Positions 7,266-40,610 are shown, counted from the first letter of the stretch. The stretch: DNA of 64,000 nucleotides from Candidatus Deferrimicrobiaceae bacterium (GCA_963792415.1 CAWBVY010000006.1:576001-640000), one strand, 5' to 3'. Numbers and translations: made by a program. Notes: a model not told the origin generated them from the letters alone.

Positions 7266-7294
7266 AACCGTGGGGACGCAGTCCCCTTTTCTCG

Positions 7295-10200: not shown

Positions 10201-10319
10201 AGGTGGGATGCGCCGAAGATGAGCGAAAAAGACCGGAACCAGACCACCTCGTAGATCAGGGCGACCGCGCCGGAGAGGAAGAACAGCGGGTAAATCAATG
10301 CGAATATCGGGCAGGACAT
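7295..10319 (-). pseudogene. Fused membrane/spermidine synthase-like protein split by a 1-nt frameshift near 8520 (real lesion or assembly error)
   Basis: 8436-10319 frame reads to LGLGTG...ILAEIE. The shifted frame continues ANVLPAARTFRRFNHDVLDSPKL...DGRN...KYDVITADPIHPW into the 7295-8395 ORF. Confidence 0.8.
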
Positions 10320-10386
10320 TCCGAACCCGGATTATACCGCGCGGTGTTTTCCGATACGCTGGCCACCTCTCTTCGGTATTGGCCTG

Positions 10387-11298
10387 TTATCTGGCCGTGG
10401 AAAATATCTGTATCCTGTTATTATCCCTGTCCGCGACGAAGACTTCGCCTTTGTCGTTGACGCACACCTGGCATGGATAGCGGAGTTGCCCCTCTTTCCA
10501 CCCCATGGTCAACTGCTCTCCCTTTAAGGAACCGTCCTGACCGACGATATATATATTGCCGCCGTTTTTATCCGCAAGATAGATGTTCCCGTGCGCATCG
10601 GTGGTGATCGTGGCAGGGAATTTCATCACTTCTTTCATGGATTCCGTCAGAGGGGAAAATTTTCCCGATCCTTTCGCCGCGACATACACCATTGCCTTGA
10701 CGCTGTCGACCAGGAACACATTTTCCTTCCCGTCGACCGCCAGATCGGAAATCACTTCATAACCTGCCGGAAAATCAATGGATTTTAAAAATTTCCCCTC
10801 TGGACTCAGGATCATCACCCTGGCCCCAAAGACGTCGAGAAGGTAAATGGAGTCGTCCTTGCCGATGTCGAAACTTCTAGGGACGACGGTTGAGGGGGGA
10901 GGAGAACCCGCGGGATCCAGCCGCCCCAGGTACTCTCCGGCCGGACTGAATCGAACGATTCGTTTCTGGCGGCCGTCAAGGACAAAGATCTCGCCTTTCG
11001 AATTGGATTGAACCCGCACCGGGAACGACAATTCGGGCGCCCTGATTTCCTTGTCGGGCATCGCATTCCCATTGATCAAGGTAAATTGAACGAGACGCCC
11101 GTTTCCCGAATCCGCCACGAGGATGTGGCCTTTCCCGTCGCAACCTACCCCCTCGGGAGAACGGAATCCCGCTTCCTTGCCGTCGGCATAGACGGACTGG
11201 AAATGCCTCAACTTCAACGCCTCCGCGCCGAAGGACACCTTCGCCAACAACAGCATCGCGACAATGGAGACGATGATTCTCACCAAGGGATTTCCCAT
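10387..11298 (-). CDS. Secreted NHL-repeat beta-propeller (omcS-cluster companion)
   Basis: Signal peptide; repeats such as PEGV...ILVADSGNGRLV and FVADRDNNRIQIF. Confidence 0.88.
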   Translation of the reverse strand: MGNPLVRIIVSIVAMLLLAKVSFGAEALKLRHFQSVYADGKEAGFRSPEGVGCDGKGHILVADSGNGRLVQFTLINGNAMPDKEIRAPELSFPVRVQSNSKGEIFVLDGRQKRIVRFSPAGEYLGRLDPAGSPPPSTVVPRSFDIGKDDSIYLLDVFGARVMILSPEGKFLKSIDFPAGYEVISDLAVDGKENVFLVDSVKAMVYVAAKGSGKFSPLTESMKEVMKFPATITTDAHGNIYLADKNGGNIYIVGQDGSLKGEQLTMGWKEGQLRYPCQVCVNDKGEVFVADRDNNRIQIFSTAR

Positions 11299-11311
11299 CG
11301 AATCACCTCGT

Positions 11312-12568
11312 TTACTGTTTATGACACTGTGTGCACAGGTCCGTGGATGTTGTGAAGGGAACCATCTTCTTGTACGGCGTCCCGTGCGATCGGTGACAAC
11401 TCATGCAATCCACGCTCAAGTTCTTGTTGCGCATATCGCGAACTTTCTCTCCGACGGGGTGCGAAGAATGCTTCCCCCAATTATGGCAACTGCCGCATAG
11501 ATCGTTGACCGAAGGATTCGTCATCAACAGGGGGACATCGGACGCGTGCGGGGAATGGCATGCCGTGCACTCCCCTTTCGCGACGGGCTCATGCTTCGTG
11601 AGGGACGTTGCCTGCCGTTTGATCGTATCGGCGTGACAAGCGCCGCATACGGAAATCATGGGCCCCTTCAGCAGCGCCGCCTCCGAGGACGCATGAGGGG
11701 CATGGCATGCAAGGCAACTGCCCTTGCCGACCAACGCCCAGTGCAACTGGTTCTTCCCGAAGGTTTCGTTGACCATTTTCGAGTGGCATCCCCGGCACAA
11801 TTCATACCCTGTTTTAATGAGCTTGAACGGGGTCGGGGAGGACGGGGATTCATGGCACTGATTGCACATTTTGCTCAGGACAGGACGGTGGACATTCGCG
11901 TACATGATGGCGGCCTTTTCCGACCCGTGGGGGTTGTGGCAGGAAGTACACCGAGCCTTCGCAACCGGGTAACCGCTGTGCTGCCGAATAAACGCGGGTT
12001 TGTCCACCTTGTGGCATTTTGTGCACAATTCGGGCACATCGGTTTTCAGAAGATGCCCGAATTTTTCGGACGCGTGCGGGTCGTGGCAGTTGAGGCACCC
12101 CTTCTCCACGGGCGAGTGTTTGAACTTCGCCTTCGTCACCGCCTGCCCGAGATCCTTGTGACACCCGAAGCAGAGTTCGTTCCCCGCCTTCACGAGGTTC
12201 CCCTTGTTGCCCGCCGCGTGGGGATCGTGGCAACTTGTGCATTTGCCATCGACGACGACCTTGTGCGTGCTCTTCGCTTTTTTCCGCGCAATCCCCTCAT
12301 GGCAGCGGAGGCAGATCCTGGAGGGATCGGCCTCCAGCAATTTTCCGTGGGAGGAAGTGTGGGGATTGTGGCAGCCGGAACAGTCTCCCTTTTTTACAGG
12401 CGTATGAAGGAACGGTCGCTTGAGCTTGTCCTGGAAGTCCACGTGGCAGTTCACGCAGATCTTCCCTTTCGCCCCGGGTTTGAGACGGTAGACGTCGGCC
12501 GGGAACGCCGTGGCGGCGGAAAAAAGGACAAGGAGAAAAAATATCCCAAGAGATACCCTGTACCGCAT
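11312..12568 (-). CDS. 16-heme periplasmic cytochrome c (paired CxxCH type)
   Basis: 16 CxxCH counted; signal peptide from MRYRVSLG at 12568. Confidence 0.93.
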   Translation of the reverse strand: MRYRVSLGIFFLLVLFSAATAFPADVYRLKPGAKGKICVNCHVDFQDKLKRPFLHTPVKKGDCSGCHNPHTSSHGKLLEADPSRICLRCHEGIARKKAKSTHKVVVDGKCTSCHDPHAAGNKGNLVKAGNELCFGCHKDLGQAVTKAKFKHSPVEKGCLNCHDPHASEKFGHLLKTDVPELCTKCHKVDKPAFIRQHSGYPVAKARCTSCHNPHGSEKAAIMYANVHRPVLSKMCNQCHESPSSPTPFKLIKTGYELCRGCHSKMVNETFGKNQLHWALVGKGSCLACHAPHASSEAALLKGPMISVCGACHADTIKRQATSLTKHEPVAKGECTACHSPHASDVPLLMTNPSVNDLCGSCHNWGKHSSHPVGEKVRDMRNKNLSVDCMSCHRSHGTPYKKMVPFTTSTDLCTQCHKQ

Positions 12569-12585
12569 GGTCGCAGCCTCTCCCT

Positions 12586-14559
12586 TCACTGTTTTTCCCC
12601 GGCGACATGACACTCCCCGCAGGAGCGTGACGCAAACGGCGGGTGCGTGACCTCTTTGAAGAACTTCGGGTCCGTCGATGCATGAGGGGTATGGCAGCTC
12701 ACGCAGTGCATGGCGCTTGCCTCGATGGAGAAGTGGGCTTTCCGGAACGGCCCCCCTTTGAGATCGTGGCACTCCCCGCACAGTGTGAGGACAGGTGTCG
12801 TGAGCAGGGGGGATTCCGGGGAAACGTGGGGCTTGTGGCACCGCAGGCAATCCCTGCGCGCCGGCGAATGCACCTTCTCCCGGTCGAACCTCGCCTTCAG
12901 ATCCTTGTGACAGGTCAGGCACATGTCCGGGCTGCTTGCCAGCAGGAGCTTCTCAAGTTTCGCCTTGTGCGGGCTGTGGCACTTCGTGCACTCCCCTTTC
13001 AGAACCGGAGCGTGCCTGCTCTTGCCCTCCTTGATCCCTTTTTCCAGTTCGGAATGACACTCGGCACAAACCTTGTCCTGCGATTTGACGATCATCCCGG
13101 CGACATTGCTCCCGTGGGCGTCGTGGCAGGCAAGGCACTCCCCTCCCGCAAAGGGGTCGTGGCTCGACCCGCCCTCCGCCTTCTTCATCAGGTCGCCGTG
13201 GCAGTTGGAACAGAGTGCCGGAGGGACCGCTTTCAGGAGATTCTTCTCCTCGGACCCGTGGACGTTATGGCAGGCGTTGCACTGCGCATTGGCGACCGGC
13301 TTGTGCGTGTTCGCCTTGACGAATTTCCCCTCCGCTTCCGCGTGACAGGAGTAGCAGACCTCGTCCATCCGGGCCCGGAACATCCCCTCGAAATTCGAAC
13401 CGTGGGGATTGTGGCAGGACGTGCAGGAATCTTCCATGAAGGGGTCGTGTCGGACCTTCGCGGTCTTGGCCGCCTTTGCCTTCGCGTGGCAGGAATAGCA
13501 GAGGTCCCCTTCCTTCGACAACAGGAGCTTCGGGTTTTTTGCAGCATGGGGACGATGACAGGAGAGGCATCCCTTCCCCCCGGTGGCGGCTGCGTGGGGT
13601 TTTGCCACCTTCTCCCCTTTTCCCTTGTGGCATCCGATGCAGAGCTGGTTCCCCTCCCCGGAAAGGAGGGCCGGATTCTCCGAACCGTGGGGATTGTGGC
13701 AGGAAAGACACGCCCCCTTCCTGAAGGGCTCGTGCTCCACCCCGCCCGCCTTCAGTCCCTTCTCGTCATGGCACTGGTAGCAGAGAGTGCTCCCCTTCTC
13801 CGTGGTTCCGAACGGCTTCGGAGAGGCGGCCGGGTTGTGGCAATCGCCGCAGCCTGCGTCGGCGACGGGTTTATGGGAACTCGTTTTCAGTAGTTTCGGT
13901 TGCGCAGAAGCATGGGGGTTGTGGCACAGGGAGCACGAGGACGTTTCCACAGGATAGCCGCCGTGCGCCTTCTTGAACGCCCCTTTCCCCGGATCGTGAC
14001 AGGAGATACAGAGAGGGATTGCCGCCTTGACCAGCAGGTTCTTTTCGTCGGAAGCGTGGGAGAGGTGGCATGCCTTGCATCCGCCCGTGGTCAAGACTTT
14101 GTGGACGGTTTTCTTTTCGTAGCTTTCCTTATTGTGGCACTGGTAGCAGAGTTCGGGACCTTCCCCCTTCAGGAGGTGGCTTGCCTGGGAGGCATGCGGG
14201 TTATGGCACGTGGTGCATTTCCCCTGCGTCAATACGGTGTGAACGTTGGCCTTGTTCACCCCGATTTTCTCCTTGCTGTGACAGGCGTAGCAGACCTCGT
14301 TGCCGTCTTTCTTGAGGAGCAGCCTCGGAACGACCCCGTGGCGGATATGGCACTCCTCGCATTTCTTCTCCTTGGTCACGGTGTGCACGTATTTCATCGG
14401 GAAATATTGATCGGCGAATTTCTTATGGCAGTCGAGACACTCCTTCTTCGTGAAGGACTGCCTCACGACCGTGGGCCCGCAGGCCAGGAAGAGCGCCCCG
14501 CACAGAAGGAATGCCGCCGCGATGAGAAAGGCCTTTTCCTTTGCGCACACCGTTTTCAT
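12586..14559 (-). CDS. 26-heme cytochrome c lipoprotein
   Basis: 26 CxxCH counted; lipobox FLAC. Confidence 0.93.
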   Translation of the reverse strand: MKTVCAKEKAFLIAAAFLLCGALFLACGPTVVRQSFTKKECLDCHKKFADQYFPMKYVHTVTKEKKCEECHIRHGVVPRLLLKKDGNEVCYACHSKEKIGVNKANVHTVLTQGKCTTCHNPHASQASHLLKGEGPELCYQCHNKESYEKKTVHKVLTTGGCKACHLSHASDEKNLLVKAAIPLCISCHDPGKGAFKKAHGGYPVETSSCSLCHNPHASAQPKLLKTSSHKPVADAGCGDCHNPAASPKPFGTTEKGSTLCYQCHDEKGLKAGGVEHEPFRKGACLSCHNPHGSENPALLSGEGNQLCIGCHKGKGEKVAKPHAAATGGKGCLSCHRPHAAKNPKLLLSKEGDLCYSCHAKAKAAKTAKVRHDPFMEDSCTSCHNPHGSNFEGMFRARMDEVCYSCHAEAEGKFVKANTHKPVANAQCNACHNVHGSEEKNLLKAVPPALCSNCHGDLMKKAEGGSSHDPFAGGECLACHDAHGSNVAGMIVKSQDKVCAECHSELEKGIKEGKSRHAPVLKGECTKCHSPHKAKLEKLLLASSPDMCLTCHKDLKARFDREKVHSPARRDCLRCHKPHVSPESPLLTTPVLTLCGECHDLKGGPFRKAHFSIEASAMHCVSCHTPHASTDPKFFKEVTHPPFASRSCGECHVAGEKQ

Positions 14560-14625
14560 GTCTGCTCCCGCCAGGAGATATCGAGGGTGATGACGGCAAG
14601 TTCGGACAATATCGATAACGCATAC

Positions 14626-14654
14626 CGTATACTAGTTTCGGGTTCCGGGGTCAA
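14626..14654 (-). promoter_or_regulatory. Possible internal sigma70 promoter for the 26- and 16-heme genes
   Basis: Minus strand TTGACC-17 nt-TATACG in a 120-bp intergenic gap. Confidence 0.4.
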
Positions 14655-14679
14655 TTTCAAAATGCGAGGCATCGGCAGT

Positions 14680-16341
14680 CTATGACCCCGGTGATTTCAG
14701 GAAGATCTTGACAGGATACGTCTCCCTGAGCTTCGCGGCGTACTCCTCCACCTCCCGCTTCGTTTTCTCACCGGCGACCTTCCCCGCGATCTCCTCCCTT
14801 ACCTTCTCATAGGGCTGCGGCTTCGGTGAGAAGACCTCCCGCAAGGACAGGGCATAGAAGTAACCCTCCGGGCTTTCATAGAGCCTGAACTCCCCCGGCT
14901 TCGCCCCGGAAACGACCTTCTGGAGATCCCCCGGCAAGGCGTCCACAGCCACGAGGTTTCCTTCAAACTTCAACAGTTTCTCCTCTTTGTCCGCCACAAG
15001 TCCTTCCGCGTTCGCGCCGAGCCAGGAAAAGTCCGTGCCCCCACGGAGTTTTCGAATCGCCTCTTCCGCAAGGTCTTTCCTTGAAAAAACGAGACTGTTG
15101 ATCCTCATCATCTCGGGGGAGGAGAATTCCGCGATATGCTTTTCGTAATAAGACGTTAAATCCCCTTCCTCCAGTCGGATCCCCGGGCGGATGACCTTCT
15201 GTAGGAATACCCCGAAAAGGACCGAGTTCCGGTACTCCCCGACCATCTCCTTGTACGCCTCGGACTTGTCGATCCCTTGCCGAAGCGCCTCCGCGCGGAC
15301 GGCGCGCCTGTCGAGGATCGGATCGAGAACATCGAACTTTCTGTTGTTGATCCGTTTTTTCGCCGCGGCCATTTCCGTCCCGTGGAAATATTTCTTCCGG
15401 ATCGCCTCGCTCAACTCCCCCACGGTAACCGGTTCGCCCCCCTTGATCTCGGCGACCACGCGCCGGTCGTTCAGCAGCGCCTCGAACCCGGGGGTTTCCG
15501 CCTCGTAATCCAGACCGTCAAGGACCTCTTGGTTCACGTTCACATATTCCTTCCTCAAGTCGGCAATGAACTGGAATTTTACTTCGGTCTCCCTGGATTT
15601 CAAGGCGGTAACCTGTGCCCGCTCCCTCGCGCCCGCATCTTCCGGGAAACGGATTTCCTCCAGTTTCAGGATGACGAATCCCGGCTTACTCCTGATGATG
15701 GGGCTCATGGCGCCGACTTCCATTCGCGATACCGCTTTCCTTATCTCCGGAAGGAGTTGTTCCTGTTTCAGATACTCTCCTTCCCCTGCCCCCTTCGCGA
15801 TCCCTTCCGCGGTCGCTCTCTTCACGATCACATTGAAGTCCTGTCCCGACTTGATCTCCGCCTCGATCCGTTTCGCATCCTCCTCTTTTCCGAACACCAG
15901 AGACAGCAACTTGTATTCCTTCACGGACTCCTTGTAAATCCTGTCCGCTTCGTTTTCATCCGCGCGGACCCCCTTTGTCTGCTGCATCAGCAACACCGCC
16001 ATCAGAGCGCCGCGGGAGTAACTGTCCACACTTTCCTTGACCTCCGGCAATTCGTCGAGTCCGATATTTCTGGCCTCCAGGAGGATAAGCCGGATGTTGA
16101 TCAAACGATTCAGGATCTCCGTATAATCCACTTTTCCGACCCGTTTACCCGCGGCCATCTCGGCATGCCCCATCCCGAGCGCCTGGTTCAACTCCTCCAC
16201 CGTGATCGGGTCCCCGTTGACCGTGGCGACGGCCTCTTTCCCGCCGATCCGGGGGAGCGGCGGTTCCCCGGCGAACCCGGTAGCCGCCATCAGGAGAAAT
16301 GTCGCGATTAGAATGTTGATCGTCTTGAATACCCGTCTCAT
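14680..16341 (-). CDS. SurA/PpiC-type periplasmic chaperone (OscH-like)
   Basis: Signal peptide, VATVNGDPITVEEL, two degenerate rotamase-like halves; start MRRVF at 16341. Confidence 0.8.
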   Translation of the reverse strand: MRRVFKTINILIATFLLMAATGFAGEPPLPRIGGKEAVATVNGDPITVEELNQALGMGHAEMAAGKRVGKVDYTEILNRLINIRLILLEARNIGLDELPEVKESVDSYSRGALMAVLLMQQTKGVRADENEADRIYKESVKEYKLLSLVFGKEEDAKRIEAEIKSGQDFNVIVKRATAEGIAKGAGEGEYLKQEQLLPEIRKAVSRMEVGAMSPIIRSKPGFVILKLEEIRFPEDAGARERAQVTALKSRETEVKFQFIADLRKEYVNVNQEVLDGLDYEAETPGFEALLNDRRVVAEIKGGEPVTVGELSEAIRKKYFHGTEMAAAKKRINNRKFDVLDPILDRRAVRAEALRQGIDKSEAYKEMVGEYRNSVLFGVFLQKVIRPGIRLEEGDLTSYYEKHIAEFSSPEMMRINSLVFSRKDLAEEAIRKLRGGTDFSWLGANAEGLVADKEEKLLKFEGNLVAVDALPGDLQKVVSGAKPGEFRLYESPEGYFYALSLREVFSPKPQPYEKVREEIAGKVAGEKTKREVEEYAAKLRETYPVKIFLKSPGS

Positions 16342-16379
16342 GCCCTTCCTTTCTTTACCCGGAAATTGGAATCCCGTTC

Positions 16380-17528
16380 TCACTTCCACATCATTCCTCT
16401 CACGATCCGCGACATCTCGGAGGCCATCGCATTTGCCGTACGCTCCCTGCCCATGTCGAAGAACCAGACGCCGTCCGTCCCCCGGTTGTAACTCTTGGAG
16501 GACCACCCCACCTCCCGCCCCTTTCTCTCCATCACCTCCAGGGAGAAATCGACGACGGGAGCGCCGTCGGCGCCCTGATAATCCTGGTAATCCATCACCT
16601 TTCCCGTGACAAGCAGGTCCGCGTTCAACGCGTTCCAGGCAATGTCGGCCTGCGCAAGGGAGATGCCGTCCTCCATGATGATCCGAAGGGCCAGAAGCTC
16701 CTTCCGCACGACCCCGGGCTCGATGACCTCGATGTTCCCCACCTTCGTCATCTCCCGAACAAGGTGCAGCTGCATGATCTCCCCCGCATACTTCCTGAGG
16801 CTCTCATTGAAGAAGGGGATGACCGCCACGGTATGCCGGGCCCGGGGGTCGAATGCTGGAGAGCGGTAGATTATTTTCGGGCGGAACTTCTTCCTCTTCT
16901 CCTCCGCGGAATCCCTGCCCCCCTTTTCCGACAGGCTTCCCGCAAGGGAGACCGAAAGGGAGCGCAGCGCCTTGTCCCGGAGGACGACGGGATTCTCGAT
17001 CAGGCCGAGATCCAGGATCCCCGGAGCGTCGTCCCCCGCGAGCCCCACGCTGTCCATCCACAAAATGACCGGGGACTCCTCTGTCGAAACCAACCGTGAG
17101 GTCAAGGCGATCTTGGGTGGAATCGTGTCATTGTAGAGCTCCAGCGAGGTGATGAGGACGGATGCGGACCCCGTCTCTTCTCTGATGGCCTTGGCCGTGG
17201 CCCCGTCGATCCCGCCGATGTACCGTAAACGGCGCCTTGCCATGAATTTCTCGAGGAGTTCCTCTTCAAGGACGTTGAAGCCCCGCGCCTGCAGACCCTC
17301 GATCAACGCCTTACGGATATCCCTCAGGGGGGCGGCGGATCCGCTCAGGTTTTCCACCGGCAGTATGGCGATCGGATGGGTATAAATCGATTTGTTGGAA
17401 ATATTCTGCGGGAGCGTTGACGGCGCCTCCGACACTCCTTTCCTGGTCGCGGAGCACCCCGAAAGGAAAACCAGGCCAGTCACCAATATGAGGATCGTCC
17501 TATTTGTAAAGCTTGTTGATGAGGTCAA
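16380..17528 (-). CDS. Lipoprotein with two tandem CsgG/PelC/DUF799-like domains (OscG-like)
   Basis: Lipobox LSGC; IAILPVENLS and VAVIPFFNES repeats; start uncertain. Confidence 0.7.
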   Translation of the reverse strand: MTSSTSFTNRTILILVTGLVFLSGCSATRKGVSEAPSTLPQNISNKSIYTHPIAILPVENLSGSAAPLRDIRKALIEGLQARGFNVLEEELLEKFMARRRLRYIGGIDGATAKAIREETGSASVLITSLELYNDTIPPKIALTSRLVSTEESPVILWMDSVGLAGDDAPGILDLGLIENPVVLRDKALRSLSVSLAGSLSEKGGRDSAEEKRKKFRPKIIYRSPAFDPRARHTVAVIPFFNESLRKYAGEIMQLHLVREMTKVGNIEVIEPGVVRKELLALRIIMEDGISLAQADIAWNALNADLLVTGKVMDYQDYQGADGAPVVDFSLEVMERKGREVGWSSKSYNRGTDGVWFFDMGRERTANAMASEMSRIVRGMMWK

Positions 17529-18084
17529 CGACCGCCTCTTCCGTGACGATGTTCATCGGTCTGCCACCCCCTCCGAACAGCCGGTCCGTCGTGCTGACCC
17601 CGCCTTTTGTCGAGGATGCCGACCAGACGACCTTTCCGGTCTTGACCTCGAACATCATCATGCTAAAGGATACCAGGTTCGCAGACACCGAGCCGGACCG
17701 GACCTCTCCGTACTCCTTGACCACACCGGCCATCACCGCATCCACGCCGAGAACGCCTCCCAGTCTCTTGATCTCCTCCTCGGAAGGAGCCGACCGGTCG
17801 ATGGGCTGCGCCCTGGAAATCCCCCGCGCGACCTCTCCGGTGGGGAGGAGATAGAGGCCTCCCGTAGCCATGAGCATGTTCATATATACATCCCGCACCC
17901 GGTCCGCCGCTTTCTCGTCCCTGGTCAGATTCGCGAACGGAAGCACCGCGACTTTCCGGATGGATCCGAAATCCATGTTCGGATCACGGTACGTGTTCGG
18001 ATCACGGTGCCTGGCCGGACCGGTACCGGCACAGGCGCCGACACAGAGAAGGATAAGAACGGCAAGGATGTTTTTCGTGGTCAC
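17500..18084 (-). CDS. CsgG/PelC/DUF799-like lipoprotein (OscF-like)
   Basis: GTG start 18084; VGAC lipobox; VAVLPFANLT...LGVDAV...TGKVVWSAS. Confidence 0.75.
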   Translation of the reverse strand: MTTKNILAVLILLCVGACAGTGPARHRDPNTYRDPNMDFGSIRKVAVLPFANLTRDEKAADRVRDVYMNMLMATGGLYLLPTGEVARGISRAQPIDRSAPSEEEIKRLGGVLGVDAVMAGVVKEYGEVRSGSVSANLVSFSMMMFEVKTGKVVWSASSTKGGVSTTDRLFGGGGRPMNIVTEEAVVDLINKLYK

Positions 18085-18151
18085 CGCGTCTCTCCTGTTT
18101 TCGAGATCAATCCTTTTCCCCCGTATTCTATACTTTCCTCCGCGCGTCTTC

Positions 18152-20350
18152 TCAGAAGTACGCCCGCATCCTCGTGGAGAAGATCTTATCGTCCGATTCC
18201 CCGGTCCTGGACTCATCCTTTACGACCTGGTACGACATGTCGAGAGAGATCCGGTTGGTGACGTTCCATCGCAAACTGGGGCGGATGGTCTGGACCTTCG
18301 CGTTGTCCCTCGTCGACAGGTCCTGATTGAAGGCGAAGTTGAACAGGAGGGCCCCGGACGGAAAGGGGGACCAGTTGAGGGAGTAATTTTGCGTGTTTTC
18401 AATAATGCCTGGTCGTTCGATCCGGCTGAAGGCGGCGAGCAGGTAAAGAGTGTCGAAGGGCCTGTAGGAGATGCTGGCGTCCCCCCTCCGGTCCACGATG
18501 GCCTCGTCCGGCCTTTCCCCGCCGGACCGGTCCGTCCACGTTCCGTTGAAGTTCAGCGTCACGGTCAGGGTCCGGTTCGGCACGAAAGAGGCGCCGAAAA
18601 GCAGGTTCTCGATCTCCTGCCTTTCGCCCGTGTCCGATTTCTCCCTGGTGACCCCCCCGTTGAGGAAAACATCGATACCCTTGTAGAGTTGGGCCGAGTT
18701 CTGCAATATCAGGGTATACACGTCCCGCAACTCCTCGACCAGTTGCTCGTTCCGCCCGCTGAACAGGAGGACGTGGCGCAACGTCTTCAGCGGTACGGCC
18801 TGCAATGAGGCGGTGTAGGCATAAGCGGACTCTTTCAGGCCATCAACCGTACGGTTATCCTCCCTCGTGACCCTCCCGTTGGCGGAAAATATCCTGGAAA
18901 AGACGTGCGAGGCCGAAAGGCCGTTGATCATGCTGCTCTGCGTACGGGACGGAGGGCTCACATTCACGGTGTTGTAAGAGAAATCGTAGTAAAGGGAGGG
19001 GCGGTCCAGCAGCCTCGTCCGGAAATCGACGGACCCGGTCTGCGTGGTCCGGGTGATTTCCCCCTTCACCTCGTCCGCGGGCCTGGTAAGGAAAGCCTGG
19101 ATCTCCGTCACGAAGATCTCCGGAAATTCCGACGCTCCTGGCACGATGGCCGTGAGCGGCCGGGTCACCACCTTGATGTATCGCGACGTCACGTTCGGGA
19201 GGCGGATCTCGAAACGGTTCTGGAAAGGGCCGAACGGGGCAGTGGCAACGGCCGTCACCAGGTTCCAGACCTTGTTGTCCGGGCTGGTGTAAACCACCCA
19301 GGAAAAGGCGTTTGCGATTTCCGGAAGGAGTTCCCTGTCGACCCAGACGTAGAGGGTGGTCATCTCCTGCGGGATCAGAAAATCGAGCCCCATGTTCCTC
19401 GGCCGGGTGTCTCCGCCCAGCGGGGGGAGCCCCAGGTTCAGGCCGGCGCTTGCGGCCAGGTTTCCGTCGATCAGGGCGGGGTTCGGATCAAGTTCTCCGT
19501 CTGCCGGGCTGTCGTCCAGGGCGGAGAGCCCGGAAAGGGGAATCAGCGGAAAACTCACCTCGCCCCCACCGCTGGTGATGACTTCCGTCTCCGAGCGGGT
19601 CGCCTCGTAGTTTGCGGACAGGGTGGTCCGCCCCTGGAAAAAGGAACCCGAATATCTCGCCCGTCCGTTGTGAGTCCGATTTTTCAGCTCGAGGTCGTCG
19701 ATCCTGTTCACCTCGTCCCTGTAGGAAGGCTGATACCGGAGGTCCAACCCCTTGTAGGCATAATGTACTGCCAATATCGCCTGTTCCGTGCTGGTGTCCT
19801 GATGGACCCGCTCCTTGTCGAACGTGTCGGATTTTTCCAGCCGCAGGTTCCAGTCGGGAAACCCTTCCGGCAACCATCCCAGGACCGCGTATTGCCGCTC
19901 GTTCACATCCGTGGTGGAAGGAGCGCCGGAGCTCTTCAGCTCGTTCTCCCTTCTGCTGTACCCCACCCCCGCCTTGTAGAGGGGGGTTGTCAGCCTCAGG
20001 TCGAAGGAGGGCTGGATAATGGTGTTTGTCGACGTGGTTTGCACGCCGCCCGAATCCGAATCCGTCATCAGTTTCTCGAAGACGCCGCCGGCGATCAGGT
20101 TTAGGTTGGGATAGAACGATTTGTTCAATCCAAGACGGTACTGCTGGAAGAAACCGCTCGTTTGGGTGTTCGTCTCCGCCCCGGAGATGTCCTTGGTTTT
20201 TACGTCGCTACTGGCGTAACCGATATCCAGCAGCCCTGTCAGGCTGTCGGCGGAGGCCACTTCCGTCGTGAACGGGACGGGGCTGAATCCCGCGATCAGG
20301 AAGAAAGCCAGGAGCCGGAAACGGAAGGCTCTCTTCGCCTTGATTTTCAA
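18152..20350 (-). CDS. Outer-membrane beta-barrel with an inserted soluble domain (OscE-like)
   Basis: Signal peptide, amphipathic strands, C-terminal Phe (MRAYF). Confidence 0.8.
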   Translation of the reverse strand: MKIKAKRAFRFRLLAFFLIAGFSPVPFTTEVASADSLTGLLDIGYASSDVKTKDISGAETNTQTSGFFQQYRLGLNKSFYPNLNLIAGGVFEKLMTDSDSGGVQTTSTNTIIQPSFDLRLTTPLYKAGVGYSRRENELKSSGAPSTTDVNERQYAVLGWLPEGFPDWNLRLEKSDTFDKERVHQDTSTEQAILAVHYAYKGLDLRYQPSYRDEVNRIDDLELKNRTHNGRARYSGSFFQGRTTLSANYEATRSETEVITSGGGEVSFPLIPLSGLSALDDSPADGELDPNPALIDGNLAASAGLNLGLPPLGGDTRPRNMGLDFLIPQEMTTLYVWVDRELLPEIANAFSWVVYTSPDNKVWNLVTAVATAPFGPFQNRFEIRLPNVTSRYIKVVTRPLTAIVPGASEFPEIFVTEIQAFLTRPADEVKGEITRTTQTGSVDFRTRLLDRPSLYYDFSYNTVNVSPPSRTQSSMINGLSASHVFSRIFSANGRVTREDNRTVDGLKESAYAYTASLQAVPLKTLRHVLLFSGRNEQLVEELRDVYTLILQNSAQLYKGIDVFLNGGVTREKSDTGERQEIENLLFGASFVPNRTLTVTLNFNGTWTDRSGGERPDEAIVDRRGDASISYRPFDTLYLLAAFSRIERPGIIENTQNYSLNWSPFPSGALLFNFAFNQDLSTRDNAKVQTIRPSLRWNVTNRISLDMSYQVVKDESRTGESDDKIFSTRMRAYF

Positions 20351-20357
20351 CGGATTA

Positions 20358-21752
20358 TTACCTTTCCCCCATCACGGCCACCCAACAGGCTCCTTCCCCG
20401 ACGTCGATCAAGGGAGCCATCTTCCTGCTGACGAGGCCGAGGACCGCCACCGCCTTCCTTTCCGGGAGGACCAAGTAGAGGCTGTTTTCATCCCCGTCGA
20501 TCGTCATGTGGGATGTTCCTCCCCCGGCCGGAATGGAGTCCACGGGGAAAAGGGAAAATGGGTCGAGGATCTCCAGGGCGTCCGGCTTCCTGCCGACATA
20601 CAGGAGGTCGGTCCGCTCGTCCACCTTGACCGCGGTCATCCCGGCCCCGACAAAGACCCGCTTCACGGAAAGCGAGGACGGATCGATGACGGTCATGTAG
20701 GGGGACTGTTCATGGATCACGTAAAGCCGGTCCCCCTTCCGGTTGAACTGCCCCCTCAGGGGTCCCGGCAAGGTCGTGATGGTCGCCGCGAGGGACCGGG
20801 AGACGACGTCGATCACGGAGATCGTGTTGGAGAGGGTGTTGAAAACGTACGCCCGTTTCCCGTCGCGGCCCATCAGAACCGAGTTCGGGCCTTTCCCCAC
20901 CGGGATCCGGTTCCTTTCGATCAGGGAGGCGGTGTCGACGACGCTCACCGAGTCCGAACCGGAGTTGGCGGTGAGAAGGATCGAGCCATCCCCGGAAAGC
21001 GCCGGCTCCTGCGGATGGTCGCCGGTCTGGAGTCGTAAACGGTTTACGACGTCCCACGCTTCCGTATCCACCACTTCGATGGTGTCGTCCCCCGCGAGAG
21101 TCACATAAGCCCTCCGCGACCGTTGGTTCAGTGCGATCCCGCTGGGCCCCCTCCCTGTGGCGATCACCCCGACGACCTGCCCCTCCTTTTTATCGAAGAC
21201 CGTGACGTTGTTGGATCCGGAATTGGCCGCGTACCCTAAGAGGCCTACGGGGGGCCGGTCGGGGACGAAGATGGAAAAGGCGGGGGAAAAACGGTACCGG
21301 TCCCCGGCCGATTTTCTGTAGTCGAGACCCAGTGAGAGAAGGAGCGCCTTTCTCCTGGCGACCTGGAAGGGAAAGCCGATCGTTACGGGCTCTTCCGGGA
21401 CCAGGAGGGCGGCTGTACCCTCCTCCCCTTTGAGAGAAGCGTTCTTAATCTTGAACGAAAGCCCGGTGTACCTCCCGGGGGGCAAATTGCCCGATGCGAG
21501 GAACCGCTGTCTTTGGAGTTTCCCCCCTCGCATCTCCGCCAGGTACAGGGTGAGTGGGTAGGAGCCCCCCCCCTCCTTCACCGCCGAGATCCCCTCCAGG
21601 GTGAAGGCCAGAGGCTCCGCCTCCTGCGGCAGGGGGCGGAGGTAAACGAGCAACTCCCCTTCCTCTTCCAGAGCCGGTTTCACCAGGACGGATTTCGCCT
21701 GGCAACCGGAGAATATCGCCAACGTGAGAATGGCAATGCAGAGACGCTTCAA
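20358..21752 (-). CDS. YVTN/YncE beta-propeller lipoprotein (OscD-like)
   Basis: FSGC lipobox; YAANSGSNNVTVFD, YVTLAGDDTIEVVD and YVFNTLSNTISVID repeats. Confidence 0.85.
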   Translation of the reverse strand: MKRLCIAILTLAIFSGCQAKSVLVKPALEEEGELLVYLRPLPQEAEPLAFTLEGISAVKEGGGSYPLTLYLAEMRGGKLQRQRFLASGNLPPGRYTGLSFKIKNASLKGEEGTAALLVPEEPVTIGFPFQVARRKALLLSLGLDYRKSAGDRYRFSPAFSIFVPDRPPVGLLGYAANSGSNNVTVFDKKEGQVVGVIATGRGPSGIALNQRSRRAYVTLAGDDTIEVVDTEAWDVVNRLRLQTGDHPQEPALSGDGSILLTANSGSDSVSVVDTASLIERNRIPVGKGPNSVLMGRDGKRAYVFNTLSNTISVIDVVSRSLAATITTLPGPLRGQFNRKGDRLYVIHEQSPYMTVIDPSSLSVKRVFVGAGMTAVKVDERTDLLYVGRKPDALEILDPFSLFPVDSIPAGGGTSHMTIDGDENSLYLVLPERKAVAVLGLVSRKMAPLIDVGEGACWVAVMGER

Positions 21753-21870
21753 GAGGCCCCTTCCCTTCTCCTGTCCCCGGCGGAAATCCACGAAAGGACA
21801 GATCCATTGCCATGGCGTTGCGACCTATGCACTTCTATCAGAACTTCGTCCGAGGCTCAACAATGAGGAA

Positions 21871-21893
21871 GGGCCGGCAGTTCCTGCCGGCCC
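21871..21893 (-). terminator. Strong hairpin downstream of omcS (partial terminator or mRNA stabiliser)
   Basis: gggccggcag-ttc-ctgccggccc perfect 10-bp stem with only a weak U tract. Confidence 0.6.
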
Positions 21894-21947
21894 CTCCCCT
21901 TGCTTCACCCAGCGAGGGAGAATACCCCCCTCGCTATATTTCCCCGA

Positions 21948-23204
21948 TCAGTCTTTCGCGTGGCACTTGTTGCAGAGGGACCGCTGGTACGAGCCGTAGT
22001 GCATCGTCGTGTCGTTGTACGCCTTCGTCGTCTCCGCCACCGTGCGGCCCTGGGCGTACTTCGCCGACGCCGCTATCGTAGATGGGGAGTCCGTCCCGGG
22101 CCACACGCCGTCGACGGCGATGAATTCATTCCCGGTGGCGTTCCACCGCGCCATGTAGTCCCATCCGGTGGCGTGCGCCCGGTGGCACGACAGGCACATC
22201 ACCCTGTCGCTGGTCGCCGGGCCGGTGGTTACCGTGGTCGGATTCGCGAGGGTTTTGAGAGTTGTATAATTGCTGGTGTTGTTCGACTGGAAGGGAACGA
22301 TCGAATCGTAGGATGTCGCTACGGTTCCCGTCATGTCGCCGCTGCCTTTATACGCGTTGTAGTTGGCCACTACAGCGGCACTCAGCCCCTGGTTGACGGG
22401 GTGCGTCATTTTGGAAGAGGTCCCGCTGTGCATATCGGGATGGCAGGCCGCGCACCAGTCGGAAGTTCCAGCGCCATACGCAACACGGGTGGCCGAGACC
22501 GCCTCGGTACGATTGTACGTGGACGGCGAGGAGGCGTTGAAAACGGCGGAAAAAGTCTTGCCGCCCGGACCGGCCGTGGAACCGTCCCCGCGCAGGATCC
22601 GGTACGCGCCGACTGCCTGGCCGGCCGCGGGTTCCACGCTGTTCCAGTAGGAGCCGGAGGCGATGATGGGGCCGCCGGTCACGCCGAACGTGGGAGCGGC
22701 ATCGGTCCCCGTTCTCCGCAGCTTGCCGTGCTGGTCGTGGCAGCTGGTGCAGCTGAACAAGGTCGAATCCATGTCCCCGCCCGGAGCGGTCGTGTTCTGG
22801 ACGTCCGCAATATAACCGAAATCGGCCGCGATGATGTTGTGTCCCTTCTTTTCGGCGAAACTGGTCTCGGTGGTTCCAGAGCGCGGAGACCAGGTGTACC
22901 CTTTCTTCAGCCACCCGAAATCACCGCCCGGGGTCCGGTTTCCCGGAGGGGTCCCGACGGGCATGTCCGCATCGGGGGTCGCGATGTGGTAGCTGGAGGC
23001 ACCGGACGCTCCGTGGCAGCTGAGGCAGGTGGAGCTGGCGTCTGTATTCGCCAGGAGAGACGATGTCGATTTCGCATCGTGGATGTTGTGGCACCCCATG
23101 CACTCGGCGACGCCGCCCGAATGGAAGGCGAGCGCCATCCCGCTGAGCCCCACGGTGATCAGGGCCGCGGCAAAGACGATAAAACCGATTCGTAAGCCTT
23201 TCAT
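21948..23204 (-). CDS. omcS: OmcS-family hexaheme nanowire cytochrome
   Basis: Signal peptide then FHSGGVAECMGCH; TPGGDFGWLKK, GHNI, six CxxCH, C-terminal YQRSLCNKCHAKD. Confidence 0.92.
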   Translation of the reverse strand: MKGLRIGFIVFAAALITVGLSGMALAFHSGGVAECMGCHNIHDAKSTSSLLANTDASSTCLSCHGASGASSYHIATPDADMPVGTPPGNRTPGGDFGWLKKGYTWSPRSGTTETSFAEKKGHNIIAADFGYIADVQNTTAPGGDMDSTLFSCTSCHDQHGKLRRTGTDAAPTFGVTGGPIIASGSYWNSVEPAAGQAVGAYRILRGDGSTAGPGGKTFSAVFNASSPSTYNRTEAVSATRVAYGAGTSDWCAACHPDMHSGTSSKMTHPVNQGLSAAVVANYNAYKGSGDMTGTVATSYDSIVPFQSNNTSNYTTLKTLANPTTVTTGPATSDRVMCLSCHRAHATGWDYMARWNATGNEFIAVDGVWPGTDSPSTIAASAKYAQGRTVAETTKAYNDTTMHYGSYQRSLCNKCHAKD

Positions 23205-23222
23205 CAGATCCCCCTTTTTCCT

Positions 23223-23304
23223 CTCCGGCAGCCCGGCCATCCGTTGCACATGGATCCGTCGGCTTTGTGTCCCCGCCTTTCGGTCGGGTTTACCCTTTTC
23301 GGAG
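23223..23304 (-). promoter_or_regulatory. Cyclic di-GMP-I (GEMM-I) riboswitch in the omcS leader
   Basis: Minus strand CTCCGAAAAGGGTAAAC-CCGACC-GAAA-GGCGGG-GACACAAAGCC...GGATCC...GGATGGCCGGGCTGCCGGAG: GNRA loop, T-A covariation at 22/45, P1 CTCCG/CGGAG. Confidence 0.88.
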
Positions 23305-23438
23305 GATCGGTTTGTTGGTTGGTTCCCTGAAGCCCCTCGAAGAATTACTCTCCGGATTCCACTTCGCACTTTCTATCGCTTCTTCTCCCCACCCCCTTTC
23401 GGATAATTTCGCGCCCCGGCCTTCCCCCGCTTTGCGGA

Positions 23439-24389
23439 TCATTCGTAGGAGACCCGGAAGACGCTGATCCCTCTTTTCCTTGCCTGGCTGACGAACACGC
23501 GGCCGGCTTTATCGACCACCAATTCATTCGGGGCGATCAGGTCGCCCGGCCCGGTACCCCGTTGGCCGAACTGCGCCTGGAACTTGAACTCCTTGTCGAA
23601 AACCGACACCGCGGAGCGCAGGGTGTCAGTCACGTAGATATCCCCCCTGCCGTCGACCGCGATCCCCGACACGATGTTGAACCTCCCGGGGAGGTTGCCG
23701 GAGGTCCCGAACGAGGAGAGCCGTCTGTCGGGAGAGAGCTTGAAGACTTTGAACAGCGTGGGCACGGTAAAGAACAGGTTCCCCTCCGGGTCCACGGTGA
23801 TGCCGGCGATGTTGTATTCGGCCCCGGGTTTCTGCTCGAAATCGACAAGGAGGGGGGCGATGTCGAACCCCTCCTGAAAAACACCGCTTGCATCCGTCAC
23901 CACCACCTTCTTCGCGACCAGGTCCGCAAGGTACAGTTTCCCGTTCCCGGAAAGGAGCCTCCCGGGGAAGATCCGGTCGAACTCGCTGGGGAGATTCCGG
24001 ATTTCGATCCCGGCCTGCGGCTCCCCCCGGTAGTCGCACCGCGTCACCCGGAACCGGTCCCCCGCGCGGGAAAGGATGAGGATGTTGCCGTCGCTCTCGA
24101 CGGCAACATCGATGAAACCGCCGATATCCAGGTCATCCCCGAACCGGTACACCTCCATCCCGCTGCTGTTGAAGACCGCCACGGAGTCGCCGGTGACCAC
24201 GTAGATTTCGCCTCTCTCCGGGTCGATGGATTGCTTGACCCAACCATACGGAACGGTTCCTGAAAAATTCGAGAGGCTGTACAGATAGGTTGCTTTTACC
24301 CCTGCAACGGACGAGGAAGGAGCGCATATCAACAGCAGGAGCAGTGCCGCCGCGAGACCTCCGATCGATGAAGAGCGAACCCGTATCAT
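23439..24389 (-). CDS. Secreted NHL-repeat beta-propeller upstream of omcS
   Basis: Signal peptide; GIAVDGRGDIYVTDT and related NHL repeats. Confidence 0.85.
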   Translation of the reverse strand: MIRVRSSSIGGLAAALLLLLICAPSSSVAGVKATYLYSLSNFSGTVPYGWVKQSIDPERGEIYVVTGDSVAVFNSSGMEVYRFGDDLDIGGFIDVAVESDGNILILSRAGDRFRVTRCDYRGEPQAGIEIRNLPSEFDRIFPGRLLSGNGKLYLADLVAKKVVVTDASGVFQEGFDIAPLLVDFEQKPGAEYNIAGITVDPEGNLFFTVPTLFKVFKLSPDRRLSSFGTSGNLPGRFNIVSGIAVDGRGDIYVTDTLRSAVSVFDKEFKFQAQFGQRGTGPGDLIAPNELVVDKAGRVFVSQARKRGISVFRVSYE

Positions 24390-24401
24390 GCCGAAAGGCA
24401 G

Positions 24402-24417
24402 AGCAACAGGCATGCCA
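24402..24417 (-). promoter_or_regulatory. Sigma54 (-24/-12) promoter for the NHL-omcS operon
   Basis: Minus strand TGGCATGCCTGTTGCT, GG-N10-GC consensus. Confidence 0.75.
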
Positions 24418-24685
24418 GACCAATTCCAGGAAAAATGTCTTTAATAACAAAGAGGTATGGATTAAAGCCTTCGATCCTCCCGGTGCAATGGTGGATTCCC
24501 CGGGTTCCTTGTGGGGATATGACCACATCGGGAGCGCGGGTAGGGCGGGGGTTTCCGACGGGAAGCGCCCCATTGCGGGACCCGGCGGGACGGGTTGCCA
24601 TGCAGGCAGGAAATTTCCCTCAATAAAACGAGCCGCATTGCCGATATCTCCCCTTAGCGGATATGTGCCCGAATGGAGAAACATT

Positions 24686-25984
24686 GTGGCGTTAACATCC
24701 TGCCCCAGGGGTAGTTCCCTTGGTTTCTGGATCTTCCTTCTTGCCGCCGCTACGGTGGGAAATCCCGCTTCCGCCTTCCACTCGGGAGGGACCGGTGAAT
24801 GCACCGGGTGCCACGACATGCACCAGGCGCAATCGTCCCCGGAAGGGACGGATAACAATGTCGCGCTGCTGGCAGGGAAGGACCCGGGATCCGTCTGCCT
24901 GGAGTGTCACCAGAGGGCCGGACAGAAGCAGCCCGATTCCCACCTCGTGGCAACCGCAGACCCGGACATGCCCGCCGGAATGCCACCCGTTCAGCTCACA
25001 CCTGCAGGGGATTTCGGCTGGGTAAAGAAAAGTTACCGCTGGGGGACCGGGGGGGGGGAAGACGGAGGGTACAGCCCCGGAGAGCGTCACGGTCACAATA
25101 TCGTCGCGGACGGATACCGGTTCTCCCCCGACGCGGAACGGGTCACGGCTCCTGGAGGGACCTACCCGTCGATCAGCCTTTCCTGCATCAGCTGTCACGA
25201 CCCGCACGGGAAGTACAGGCGGTTTGCCGGCGGTTCCATCGGAACCGTGGGCGCACCGATCCAGGCATCGGGGTCCTACGACTCGAGCCCGGACCCTTCC
25301 GGGGACCGTTCCGTCGGGGTCTACAGGCTCCTCGGGGGGAAAGGGTACAGGACGTCCTTGTATGATGGCGAGCCATTCACCGCCGACCCTCCCTCCGCGG
25401 TATCCCCCGCGACGTACAACCGCAAGGAAGATGCGGGCGACACGCGGGTCGCCTACGGCGCCGGTTTCTCGGAGTGGTGCGCCAACTGCCATCCCCGGTT
25501 CCTGTCCGGCGGAGGCACGGGCGCGAAGAGCCACCCCGCGGGAACCACCGTAAAACTTTCGCGGAACGTAATCGCGAATTACAACTCCTACGTGGCCTCG
25601 GGGAATCTCTCGGGGAGCAGTTCCACGTCGTATACCTCCATGGTTCCGTTCGAGGCCGGTACGTCGGATTACGGGCTATTGAAAAGGATGGCGAAGAGCG
25701 ACGGATCCGCGGCCGCGGGTCCCGGGTCCCAGGCCAACGTGATGTGCCTCTCCTGCCACCGGGCCCACGCCTCCGGGTGGGACCACGGGGGCCGGTGGAA
25801 CCTGAAGTCGGAATTTCTCGTCTACAACGGGCAGTTCCCGGGAATCGACGACGGGACCGTGCCGGCAAGATTCTCCCAAGGGCGCACGGGCGCCGAAACC
25901 CGGAAGGCGTATTACGATCGACCGCCGACCGCCTATGCCACCTACCAGCGTTCGCTCTGCAACAAGTGCCACGCGAAGGATTGA
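24686..25984 (+). CDS. Second OmcS/OmcT-family hexaheme cytochrome, divergently transcribed
   Basis: GTG after GGAGA; ASA-FHSGGTGECTGCH, TPAGDFGWVKK, six CxxCH, YQRSLCNKCHAKD. Confidence 0.9.
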   Translation: MALTSCPRGSSLGFWIFLLAAATVGNPASAFHSGGTGECTGCHDMHQAQSSPEGTDNNVALLAGKDPGSVCLECHQRAGQKQPDSHLVATADPDMPAGMPPVQLTPAGDFGWVKKSYRWGTGGGEDGGYSPGERHGHNIVADGYRFSPDAERVTAPGGTYPSISLSCISCHDPHGKYRRFAGGSIGTVGAPIQASGSYDSSPDPSGDRSVGVYRLLGGKGYRTSLYDGEPFTADPPSAVSPATYNRKEDAGDTRVAYGAGFSEWCANCHPRFLSGGGTGAKSHPAGTTVKLSRNVIANYNSYVASGNLSGSSSTSYTSMVPFEAGTSDYGLLKRMAKSDGSAAAGPGSQANVMCLSCHRAHASGWDHGGRWNLKSEFLVYNGQFPGIDDGTVPARFSQGRTGAETRKAYYDRPPTAYATYQRSLCNKCHAKD

Positions 25985-26119
25985 CGCCGTGGATGGGGAA
26001 ATTCCCACCCAAGGTGGTGAATTCGCATGAATTCTTATATCGGAATTTATTACCGGGAAATTGCTCCGACCAGGAGATTGATAAAAAAGGGAAATTTCTC
26101 CCCCCGCCCGCTTTATTAA

Positions 26120-26135
26120 CGGTACCGAATTTGCA
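26120..26135 (+). promoter_or_regulatory. Probable sigma54 promoter for the REC-PilZ gene
   Basis: CGGTACCGAATTTGCA, GG-N10-GC, at the end of an AT-rich intergenic region. Confidence 0.55.
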
Positions 26136-26142
26136 TTCATTC

Positions 26143-26829: not shown

Positions 26830-26830
26830 T

Positions 26831-39445: not shown

Positions 39446-39559
39446 ATGAACTTTCTCTGTCTAGCGGCGGTTTGCGTTTCCCTCCCTTCATTGCGGCGGC
39501 GGTCGGGGAAAAATATTCTCCTGGCCAAGCGTGCGCGCATCGCATCTCCTTCTTCATAA
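39446..39559 (+). CDS. Candidate 37-aa leader peptide (uORF) of terC
   Basis: AAGGAGG SD 6 nt before ATG; MNFLCLAAVCVSLPSLRRRSGKNILLAKRARIASPSS; TAA overlaps the terC SD. Confidence 0.45.
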   Translation: MNFLCLAAVCVSLPSLRRRSGKNILLAKRARIASPSS

Positions 39560-39568
39560 GGAGGGGCC

Positions 39569-40579: not shown

Positions 40580-40610
40580 CCGGAACGGTACGGGGGGCGT
40601 ACGGCCTCCG

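Follow-up and report, generated by a model that had tools for sequence, protein, structure and literature searches.

The omcS-companion (osc) cluster of Geobacter sulfurreducens, reportedly described by Shen et al. in 2025 (Cell Chem Biol 32:239), is said to occupy GSU2493-GSU2505. In the accessible part of a paper on the system, omcS is GSU2504, omcT is GSU2503, oscC is GSU2501, oscI is GSU2495 and oscJ is GSU2494, and the roles proposed are folding for OscH, secretion for OscE, OscF and OscG, and morphology for OscD (PMC13194489); the loci that we attach to the letters D, E, F, G, H and K are interpolated from the anchors oscC, oscI and oscJ. The excerpted text of a further source places the eight-gene block GSU2500-2493 always behind a hexaheme cytochrome of the GSU2501 type and gives GSU2495 as a protein of ~70 kDa with 26 hemes (PMC12977616). 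Here we compare with this system a locus in a 64,000-nt stretch of DNA from a Candidatus Deferrimicrobiaceae bacterium (GCA_963792415.1, CAWBVY010000006.1:576001-640000), which is called the window hereafter and whose positions are counted from its first letter. The analysis indicated that positions ~7295-25984 probably represent an osc-type cluster making an extracellular cytochrome polymer of the OmcS family; what is demonstrated for it is homology to the osc genes in the same order, with best hits that are reciprocal, together with the predicted folds and a conserved ligand set.

Genome G471, which carries four OmcS-like genes on one contig, three of them clustered (locus L030), served as the anchor for the comparison. 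The first hexaheme of this locus matched OmcS (PDB 6ef8) with 938 bits over 407/407 positions, so the locus was taken as the osc locus of G. sulfurreducens. Its genes run in the order NHL, OmcS, OmcT, a 1035-amino-acid membrane protein, GSU2501, YVTN, barrel, lipoprotein, lipoprotein, peptidyl-prolyl isomerase (PPIase), 26-heme, 16-heme and NHL. When the window proteins were placed on the locus by tblastn, this gene order was kept at identities of 35-57%: 38% for the first NHL protein, 47%, 50% and 43% at OmcS, OmcT and GSU2501, 47% for YVTN, 35% for the barrel, 55% and 48% for the lipoproteins, 37% for the PPIase, 57% for the 26-heme protein (over full length to a 660-amino-acid protein with 26 CXXCH motifs), 55%/50% for the 16-heme protein and 42% for the last NHL protein. 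In the reverse direction, every one of the 13 anchor-locus proteins searched found its genome-wide best match inside the window cluster. The forward search, carried out for the barrel, both lipoproteins, YVTN and the PPIase, returned the anchor osc locus as best match in 5/5 cases, the next matches being far weaker; for the NHL, multiheme and hexaheme genes, orthology is read from the reverse direction and at the level of the locus. Reciprocal best hits were thereby obtained for the PPIase (E 1.5e-106, against 3.9e-13 for the next match), for YVTN (47% identity) and for both lipoproteins (the 194-amino-acid one at 55%), while the barrel protein had a single match in the anchor genome, within the osc locus. 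The barrel gene also stood beside a hexaheme gene in 20 of the 27 fetched loci and in five further genomes of the host family, and the arrangement of the genes was met again in many genomes, which speaks against a chance grouping. The orthology and synteny with GSU2493-2505 on which the initial annotation had staked its reading were thus recovered, with the same order and with best matches in both directions.

The ten minus-strand genes and the divergent omcS2 make up eleven intact reading frames of full length, in which ligands and signal peptides are conserved (Table 1). Their CXXCH motifs add up to 54 (16 + 26 + 6 + 6 in the 16-heme protein, the 26-heme protein, omcS1 and omcS2), which agrees in both gene list and motif count with what had been noted initially. 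The gaps between consecutive minus-strand genes, calculated from the coordinates, range from -29 to 234 nt and would fit one or two operons. The first NHL gene, at 38-39% identity, is the best match of GSU2505 genome-wide. The 26-heme protein scored 317.5 bits against the DmsE-family model TIGR03508 (cut-off 192.2), as repeated modules. On the anchor side, the counterpart of the 16-heme gene (L030 6190-7530) consists of a 446-amino-acid frame with 10 CXXCH and an overlapping 118-amino-acid frame with 5 CXXCH, and the alignment of the window protein to this counterpart is spread over two frames; the accessible part of PMC13194489 names, among strain differences, a frameshift at position 868 of oscJ. 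The limits first assigned to the cluster, 10387-25984, enclose all of these genes and proved too narrow at one end. A GSU2502 query found its best genome-wide match beyond the last NHL gene, divided between two frames into the segments 10331-8523 (52% identity over query residues 13-618) and 8518-7307 (44% over 620-1022). This GSU2502-like gene is frameshifted at 8518-8523 into an N-terminal part (8436-10319) and a C-terminal part (7295-8518), which divides its Spermine_synth profile in two; in a congener (locus L036) and in the Geobacter anchor the gene lies in one frame. A two-way terminator-like hairpin follows at 7264-7286, in a window where such sites showed no enrichment (28, against 21.4 +/- 4.4 in shuffled sequence). 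From the position of this match downstream of the last NHL gene, and of the hairpin after it, the unit was taken to span ~7295-25984.

Table 1. Features of the osc-type cluster and its regulatory neighborhood, with best identities to host-family and Nitrospirota-labelled copies
Feature	Position	Strand	Evidence	Best identity, host family	Best identity, Nitrospirota-labelled loci
GSU2502-like membrane protein, many transmembrane segments and a spermine/spermidine-synthase-like domain	7295-10319	minus	frameshifted		
NHL-repeat beta-propeller, GSU2493 counterpart (OscK, letter interpolated)	10387-11298	minus	Pfam NHL E 1.6e-19		
16-heme periplasmic cytochrome, GSU2494 (OscJ) counterpart	11312-12571	minus	16 CXXCH; Paired_CXXCH_1 E 1.7e-89	60%	52%
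26-heme periplasmic cytochrome, GSU2495 (OscI) counterpart	12586-14559	minus	26 CXXCH in 657 amino acids	65%	59%
SurA-like periplasmic PPIase/chaperone, GSU2496 (OscH) counterpart	14680-16344	minus	Rotamase_2, Rotamase and SurA_N domains	45%	45%
Lipoprotein with two tandem PelC-like domains, 382 amino acids, GSU2497 (OscG) counterpart	16380-17528	minus	lipobox LSGC; no Pfam match		
Single-domain PelC/GNA1162-like lipoprotein, 194 amino acids, GSU2498 (OscF) counterpart	17500-18084	minus	lipobox VGAC		
Outer-membrane beta-barrel, 732 amino acids, GSU2499 (OscE) counterpart	18152-20350	minus	predicted fold; no Pfam match	42%	50%
YVTN/YncE-type beta-propeller lipoprotein, GSU2500 (OscD) counterpart	20358-21791	minus	Pfam YNCE, TIGR02276	49%	58%
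omcS1, OmcS-family hexaheme cytochrome, presumed exported/polymerising cargo	21948-23204	minus	PDB 6ef8 match; 6 CXXCH	52%	75%
NHL/SBBP beta-propeller, GSU2505 counterpart, first gene of the unit	23439-24413	minus	Pfam NHL, SBBP, DUF5128	44%	51%
omcS2, divergent second OmcS-family hexaheme	24686-25984	plus	6 CXXCH; 51% identity to omcS1	70%	52%
Sigma-54-dependent response regulator (candidate regulator)	26831-28219	minus	Pfam Sigma54_activat E 7e-59, Response_reg, HTH_8		
HAMP histidine kinase (candidate regulator)	28216-29664	minus	HisKA, HATPase_c		

The genes placed between the propeller lipoprotein and the chaperone encode the presumed export parts, for which AlphaFold2 models were built on 20 orthologues (barrel) and 16 orthologues (382-amino-acid lipoprotein). 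The barrel model (predicted local distance difference test score, pLDDT, 86.6) displays 11 + 17 long strands, and thus ~28 strands, with a beta-sandwich domain inserted at residues ~264-424 between strands 11 and 12. The region of the insert (window 19061-19573, residues ~260-430) bears motifs conserved across the orthologues, and its only domain resemblance was to F5/8 type C, at E 0.05. Among solved folds, the barrel best matched MtrB (6r2q_B, E 2e-9, template modelling (TM) score 0.34-0.38), followed by TonB-dependent receptors and pilus ushers; no PelB entry was found among the top fold matches listed. The model of the 382-amino-acid lipoprotein (pLDDT 80.9) consists of two tandem alpha/beta domains, whose top folds were PelC (5t0z, 5t10 and 9h80; E 2e-9 to 5.8e-8, TM-score to target 0.64-0.76), and then GNA1162, the N-terminal domain of TolB and LpoB, with CsgG at rank 38 (E 2e-4). 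The 194-amino-acid lipoprotein matched the Pfam GNA1162-like family at 28.9 bits (cut-off 25.9) as well as LpoB, and shows weak paralogy to the second, C-terminal domain of its larger neighbor. The Pfam and NCBIfam scans of the window proteins returned no CsgG-family match. Of the initial description of these proteins as CsgG/PelC-like, the PelC side holds, the fold being of the PelC/GNA1162/LpoB type, and the CsgG side shrinks to the weak fold match just given. The curli-like channel that had been proposed along with it is not borne out, as a separate ~28-strand barrel closest to MtrB is the predicted outer-membrane pore. Judged from these models, the layout of three PelC-like domains under a large monomeric barrel would fit a PelBC or porin-cytochrome arrangement better than curli.

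The presumed cargo, omcS1, matched OmcS (PDB 6ef8) at E 3.4e-98, with query residues 27-418 on chain positions 1-407, which is the whole mature chain; in the alignment OmcS1 is ~51% identical to OmcS over full length. Exactly two OmcS-type hexaheme genes were found in the genome. The second of them, omcS2, had been recognised from the outset as a divergent paralogue, which its plus-strand position, its six CXXCH motifs and its identity to omcS1 corroborate; its probable start is a GTG at 24686 preceded by GGAG, an open-reading-frame start at 24290 being less likely. All 12 heme-ligand His residues are kept in both window hexahemes, comprising six of the motifs and six further ones, including the N-terminal one. 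The further His residues correspond to mature OmcS positions 2, 16, 110, 147, 257 and 335, and the ligand His residues are kept in 41-43 of the 43 aligned hexahemes. Likewise, the mature N-terminus FHSGG (FHSGGVAEC.GCH as in OmcS) is nearly universal in the family. In the accessible part of PMC7096707, the six hemes of OmcS are all bis-His and the His of heme 5 is supplied by the neighboring subunit. A search for OmcS homologues yielded at least 3962 with E <= 1e-20 among 8000 candidates scored. The hexaheme tree was built on 43 sequences from the window, the anchor genome and the fetched loci, and its backbone is unresolved. Within it, omcS1 falls in a 13-row clade (support 99) with proteins of Nitrospirota-labelled genomes, nested in a 19-row clade (99) that further takes in one Anaeromyxobacteraceae copy and three from the phylum of Geobacter. 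Filament formation by the omcS1 clade is proposed by analogy with OmcS, and a complex prediction of two mature OmcS1 chains with four hemes, run without controls, was uninformative either way (score 0.01, mark 0.42).

Taking Geobacter as the guide, we infer the following sequence of functional steps. OmcS1 would be exported by Sec, its hemes would be attached in the periplasm, and its signal peptide would be cut before the conserved FHSGG. The SurA-like PPIase may then hold it in an export-competent state, while the three PelC-like domains of the OscF and OscG counterparts, lying under the outer membrane, would feed the OscE-type barrel. The YVTN and NHL propellers may affect the shape or the assembly of the filament, and the 26-heme and 16-heme cytochromes would act as a relay delivering electrons to the filament base. 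Outside the cell, the subunits would join head to tail, the N-terminal His of one completing the bis-His ligation of heme 5 in the next, as in OmcS.

The host is not a Geobacter, as the initial annotation had already supposed: its RpoC is 84% identical to that of a same-family genome and 69% to that of the Geobacter anchor, beside 70% to an Anaeromyxobacteraceae genome and 68% to a Syntrophales genome. The host genome belongs to the same phylum sample as a Syntrophales-labelled genome, a sample that also includes a member of the class of the Geobacter anchor; the host therefore shares Geobacter's phylum and belongs to another class. Since the loci nearest to the cluster carry the labels Nitrospirota or Thermodesulfovibrionia, membership of the host in Nitrospirota was considered as well, and it was rejected, its RpoC being no closer to genomes labelled Nitrospirota than to other phyla (64-67% for four of them, 65% for another and 45% for one more) and its phylum sample being that of Geobacter. 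OmcS genes in Thermodesulfovibrionia have already been described, according to the accessible part of PMC8478452. The barrel protein, used as a marker, had matches in 12 of the 401 genomes of the host phylum sample, in 9 of 70 host-family genomes and in 3 of 27 congeners, the first two counts including the window's own genome. The right flank of the cluster, an ABC transporter gene, is 80-93% identical at the DNA level in most congeners, and cluster DNA was detected in three congeners only, at 64-72% identity. The layout of the cluster is also that of the host family's clusters, in which a second hexaheme gene diverges and the far end is occupied by the GSU2502-like gene. In one congener (L036, genome G1259), the cluster sits at the same place with the same right flank, and its NHL, hexaheme, lipoprotein, PPIase and 16-heme genes appear as fragments, which may reflect decay or poor assembly (the genome is 64% complete).

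Several observations weigh against a wire-making cluster in this host. The omcS1 clade of 19 rows is separate from both the OmcS/OmcT/OmcJ clade (92) and the GSU2501 clade (96), so that the label omcS, in the sense of an orthologue of GSU2504, has to be withdrawn in favor of plain membership of the OmcS family; an approximately unbiased (AU) test that joined omcS1 alone to OmcS/OmcT/OmcJ was ill-posed, as it shuts out the close kin of omcS1, and its result was not used. The same set of 12 His occurs in OmcT, GSU2501 and OmcJ, and the pattern is accordingly necessary for polymerisation and not diagnostic of wire-formers. Moreover, wire formation is known for OmcS itself only, as far as the excerpted text of PMC12977616 goes. 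The functional steps lean on the Geobacter genetics of Shen et al. 2025 as summarised in other papers, and the YVTN lipobox differs, reading FSGCQ without a heme motif in the window and CSGCH, a CXXCH motif, in Geobacter (L030 15274-16770). The separate clade and the undiscriminating His pattern would both suit a machinery that exports a hexaheme acting as a monomeric or loosely associated surface cytochrome, wires being a later speciality of the Geobacter OmcS clade. We nevertheless consider this unlikely, because the N-terminal His that OmcS donates to heme 5, which we take to be residue 16, is kept in 41 of the 43 family members, together with the nearly universal FHSGG terminus. A ligand that can be satisfied only from another subunit and is strictly conserved argues for polymerisation across the family.

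The same parts could be read as a porin-cytochrome conduit of the MtrCAB kind, in which the 26-heme protein, the 16-heme protein or both thread the barrel and pass electrons to a surface hexaheme, the barrel not being an export pore. MtrB as the best solved fold of the barrel and the score of the 26-heme protein above the cut-off of the DmsE/MtrA decaheme model speak for it; the TM-scores to MtrB are low, however, and export-type parts stand alongside, namely the beta-sandwich inserted in the barrel, the PelC-like ring lipoproteins and the SurA-like chaperone. Geobacter genetics, in the accessible part of PMC13194489, also gives OscE, OscF and OscG to OmcS secretion. A conduit in place of export is therefore improbable, although the two roles need not be mutually exclusive. 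Still further down the scale, and in our estimate very improbable, comes a decaying or silent island acquired horizontally and without present function in the host. The frameshift in the GSU2502-like gene may be a true gene break or an assembly error, and the cluster may be impaired by it; the scarcity of the barrel gene among congeners and family members, the fragmented look of the L036 copy and the guanine-cytosine (GC) content of the region, 0.51-0.62 where the genome averages 0.648 (sd 0.046), point the same way. Against it, the other eleven genes are intact and full-length with their ligands and signal peptides conserved, and in two libraries labelled as metatranscriptomic there are contigs identical to omcS1 over 649, 127 and 327 nt, which is a hint of expression, from libraries of a kind that may hold DNA. 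The cluster is best read as an osc-type machine for an OmcS-family polymer.

Its genes do not all share one history. OmcS1 shares 70-75% identity with Nitrospirota-labelled copies when compared by tblastn, and up to 78% in the alignment used for the tree, against at most 52% with family copies, and the best identities of the other genes lean to one or the other side (Table 1), with a difference of no more than three points between host family and Nitrospirota-labelled loci for the far NHL gene, both lipoproteins and the GSU2502-like gene. Among 12 single-gene trees, five grouped the window gene with the Nitrospirota type (PPIase, barrel, YVTN, omcS1 and first NHL), three with the host family (GSU2502-like, 26-heme and omcS2) and one with another family of the phylum. 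With support 98, omcS2 nests in the host-family copies, as does the 26-heme gene (95). AU tests rejected the union of omcS1 with the cargo of its family relative (p 2.4e-4) and that of the barrel with six family barrels (p 0.0028). It looks as if the cargo-proximal block (NHL-omcS1-YVTN-barrel) of a resident osc locus of the family type was replaced by a Nitrospirota-type block, with omcS2, the 26-heme gene and the GSU2502-like gene looking host-family in type; the case for replacement is firm with omcS1, fair with the barrel and suggestive with the remaining genes, YVTN and the first NHL having weaker branch supports. This part of the interpretation has its own counterweights: the other three of the 12 trees were unresolved, the union of window and family relative was not rejected when eight companions were joined (p 0.425), that of the 26-heme gene with Nitrospirota-type copies was not rejected either (p 0.165), and the groups for the AU tests were named after the trees had been seen. 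More tentatively, at somewhat less than even chances, the osc machine may be modular, with an NHL-hexaheme-YVTN-barrel specificity module swapping between phyla by recombination into a resident chassis, and the window may have caught such a swap. The lipoproteins, the chaperone, the 26-heme and 16-heme cytochromes, the GSU2502-like protein and the second hexaheme could, with the same reserve, be the chassis. If this were true, subunit, propellers and pore would co-adapt and travel together, which would tell which parts recognise the filament subunit.

With regard to regulation, the sigma-54 activator and the histidine kinase listed in Table 1 are candidate regulators by their adjacency to the cluster, and a response-regulator-PilZ gene also adjoins omcS2 (the regulator neighborhood lying within 25474-29664). 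A sigma-54-like element, TGGCAT-N5-TTGC, is located at 24417-24403 on the minus strand, just before the first gene and overlapping the start codon of its longest open reading frame; the sigma-54 promoter pattern is not enriched in the window, with 3 matches against 2.2 expected by chance. One RNA library contained fragments, slightly diverged in sequence, of several companion genes. The contigs of runs X2 and X13 span omcS1 and the terminal part of omcS2, the neighboring genes being without cover, which is no evidence against them; no ranking of expression was drawn from this pattern. Partial near-identical matches were also present in estuary and marine-sediment runs, as identified by coded run labels, and a habitat is suggested by them with reserve.

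Downstream of the cluster lie a TPR protein (5430-7265), a family-2 glycosyltransferase (4344-5084), a PMT_2/TPR protein (2579-4333), a YscW-like lipoprotein (2076-2582) and a second GSU2502-like paralogue, 26% identical (3-2039). Adjoining glycosylation genes have been described for the clusters of OmcE cytochrome filaments (PMC13712944). Elsewhere, in three Nitrospirota-labelled loci (L003, L004 and L006), the cluster occurs as two divergent halves, with PPIase, 26-heme, 16-heme and NHL genes on one strand and NHL, hexaheme, YVTN, barrel and lipoprotein genes on the opposite one. At 39558-40000, the window holds a stretch with a 98% identical copy on another contig of the same genome and repeats of 73-82% in congeners; it is probably a mobile or repeated element and overlaps a 383-amino-acid frame (39554-40705) without Pfam match.

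With this locus, a complete osc cluster becomes known from a lineage remote from Geobacter, which fits the published view of a widespread machinery; the title of the publication on the osc system is said to call it widespread and ancient. The cargo of the window belongs to a third hexaheme clade, and the lone cargo of the single-hexaheme clusters sampled (among them L018, L019, L021 and the Nitrospirota-labelled loci) is of the same clade, which makes the clade a good candidate for learning whether wires go back to the ancestor of the family or are peculiar to Geobacter OmcS. Subunit, propellers and barrel appear to have been exchanged together, and this marks them as the likely subunit-recognising parts. 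Neither point alters the known picture of the osc system, which is itself already published, and any novelty would lie in the mosaic origin alone.

Set against the osc cluster of Geobacter, the window holds the same families in the same order (NHL, hexaheme, YVTN, barrel, two lipoproteins, PPIase, 26-heme, 16-heme and NHL) plus a GSU2502-like gene. It differs in having one in-line cargo gene and a divergent paralogue where Geobacter has omcS, omcT and GSU2501, in carrying the GSU2502-like gene frameshifted at the far cluster end, and in residing in a host of another class of the same phylum, with a central block apparently foreign to the host family. With the OmcS subunit (GSU2504; PDB 6EF8/6NEF), OmcS1 has in common full-length homology, six CXXCH motifs, all twelve His and the mature N-terminus, whereas it belongs to a separate clade, whose filaments are putative. 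The PelBC system (5t0z, 5t10 and 9h80) resembles the window in the PelC fold of lipoproteins encoded beside an outer-membrane barrel; its cargo is a polysaccharide, in contrast to the heme protein of the window, where three PelC-like domains are spread over two proteins and the barrel is much larger and not PelB-like by fold ranking. To MtrCAB (6r2q) the window is linked by the top fold of its barrel and by the DmsE/MtrA-like heme modules of the neighboring cytochromes, from which it departs with 26 + 16 hemes instead of 10, low TM-scores, export-type accessory genes and no MtrC-type decaheme. The likeness to curli is confined to a distant fold that the lipoprotein domains of the window share with CsgG in its periplasmic domain: the pore of curli is formed by the lipoprotein, whereas the window encodes a separate, monomeric barrel.

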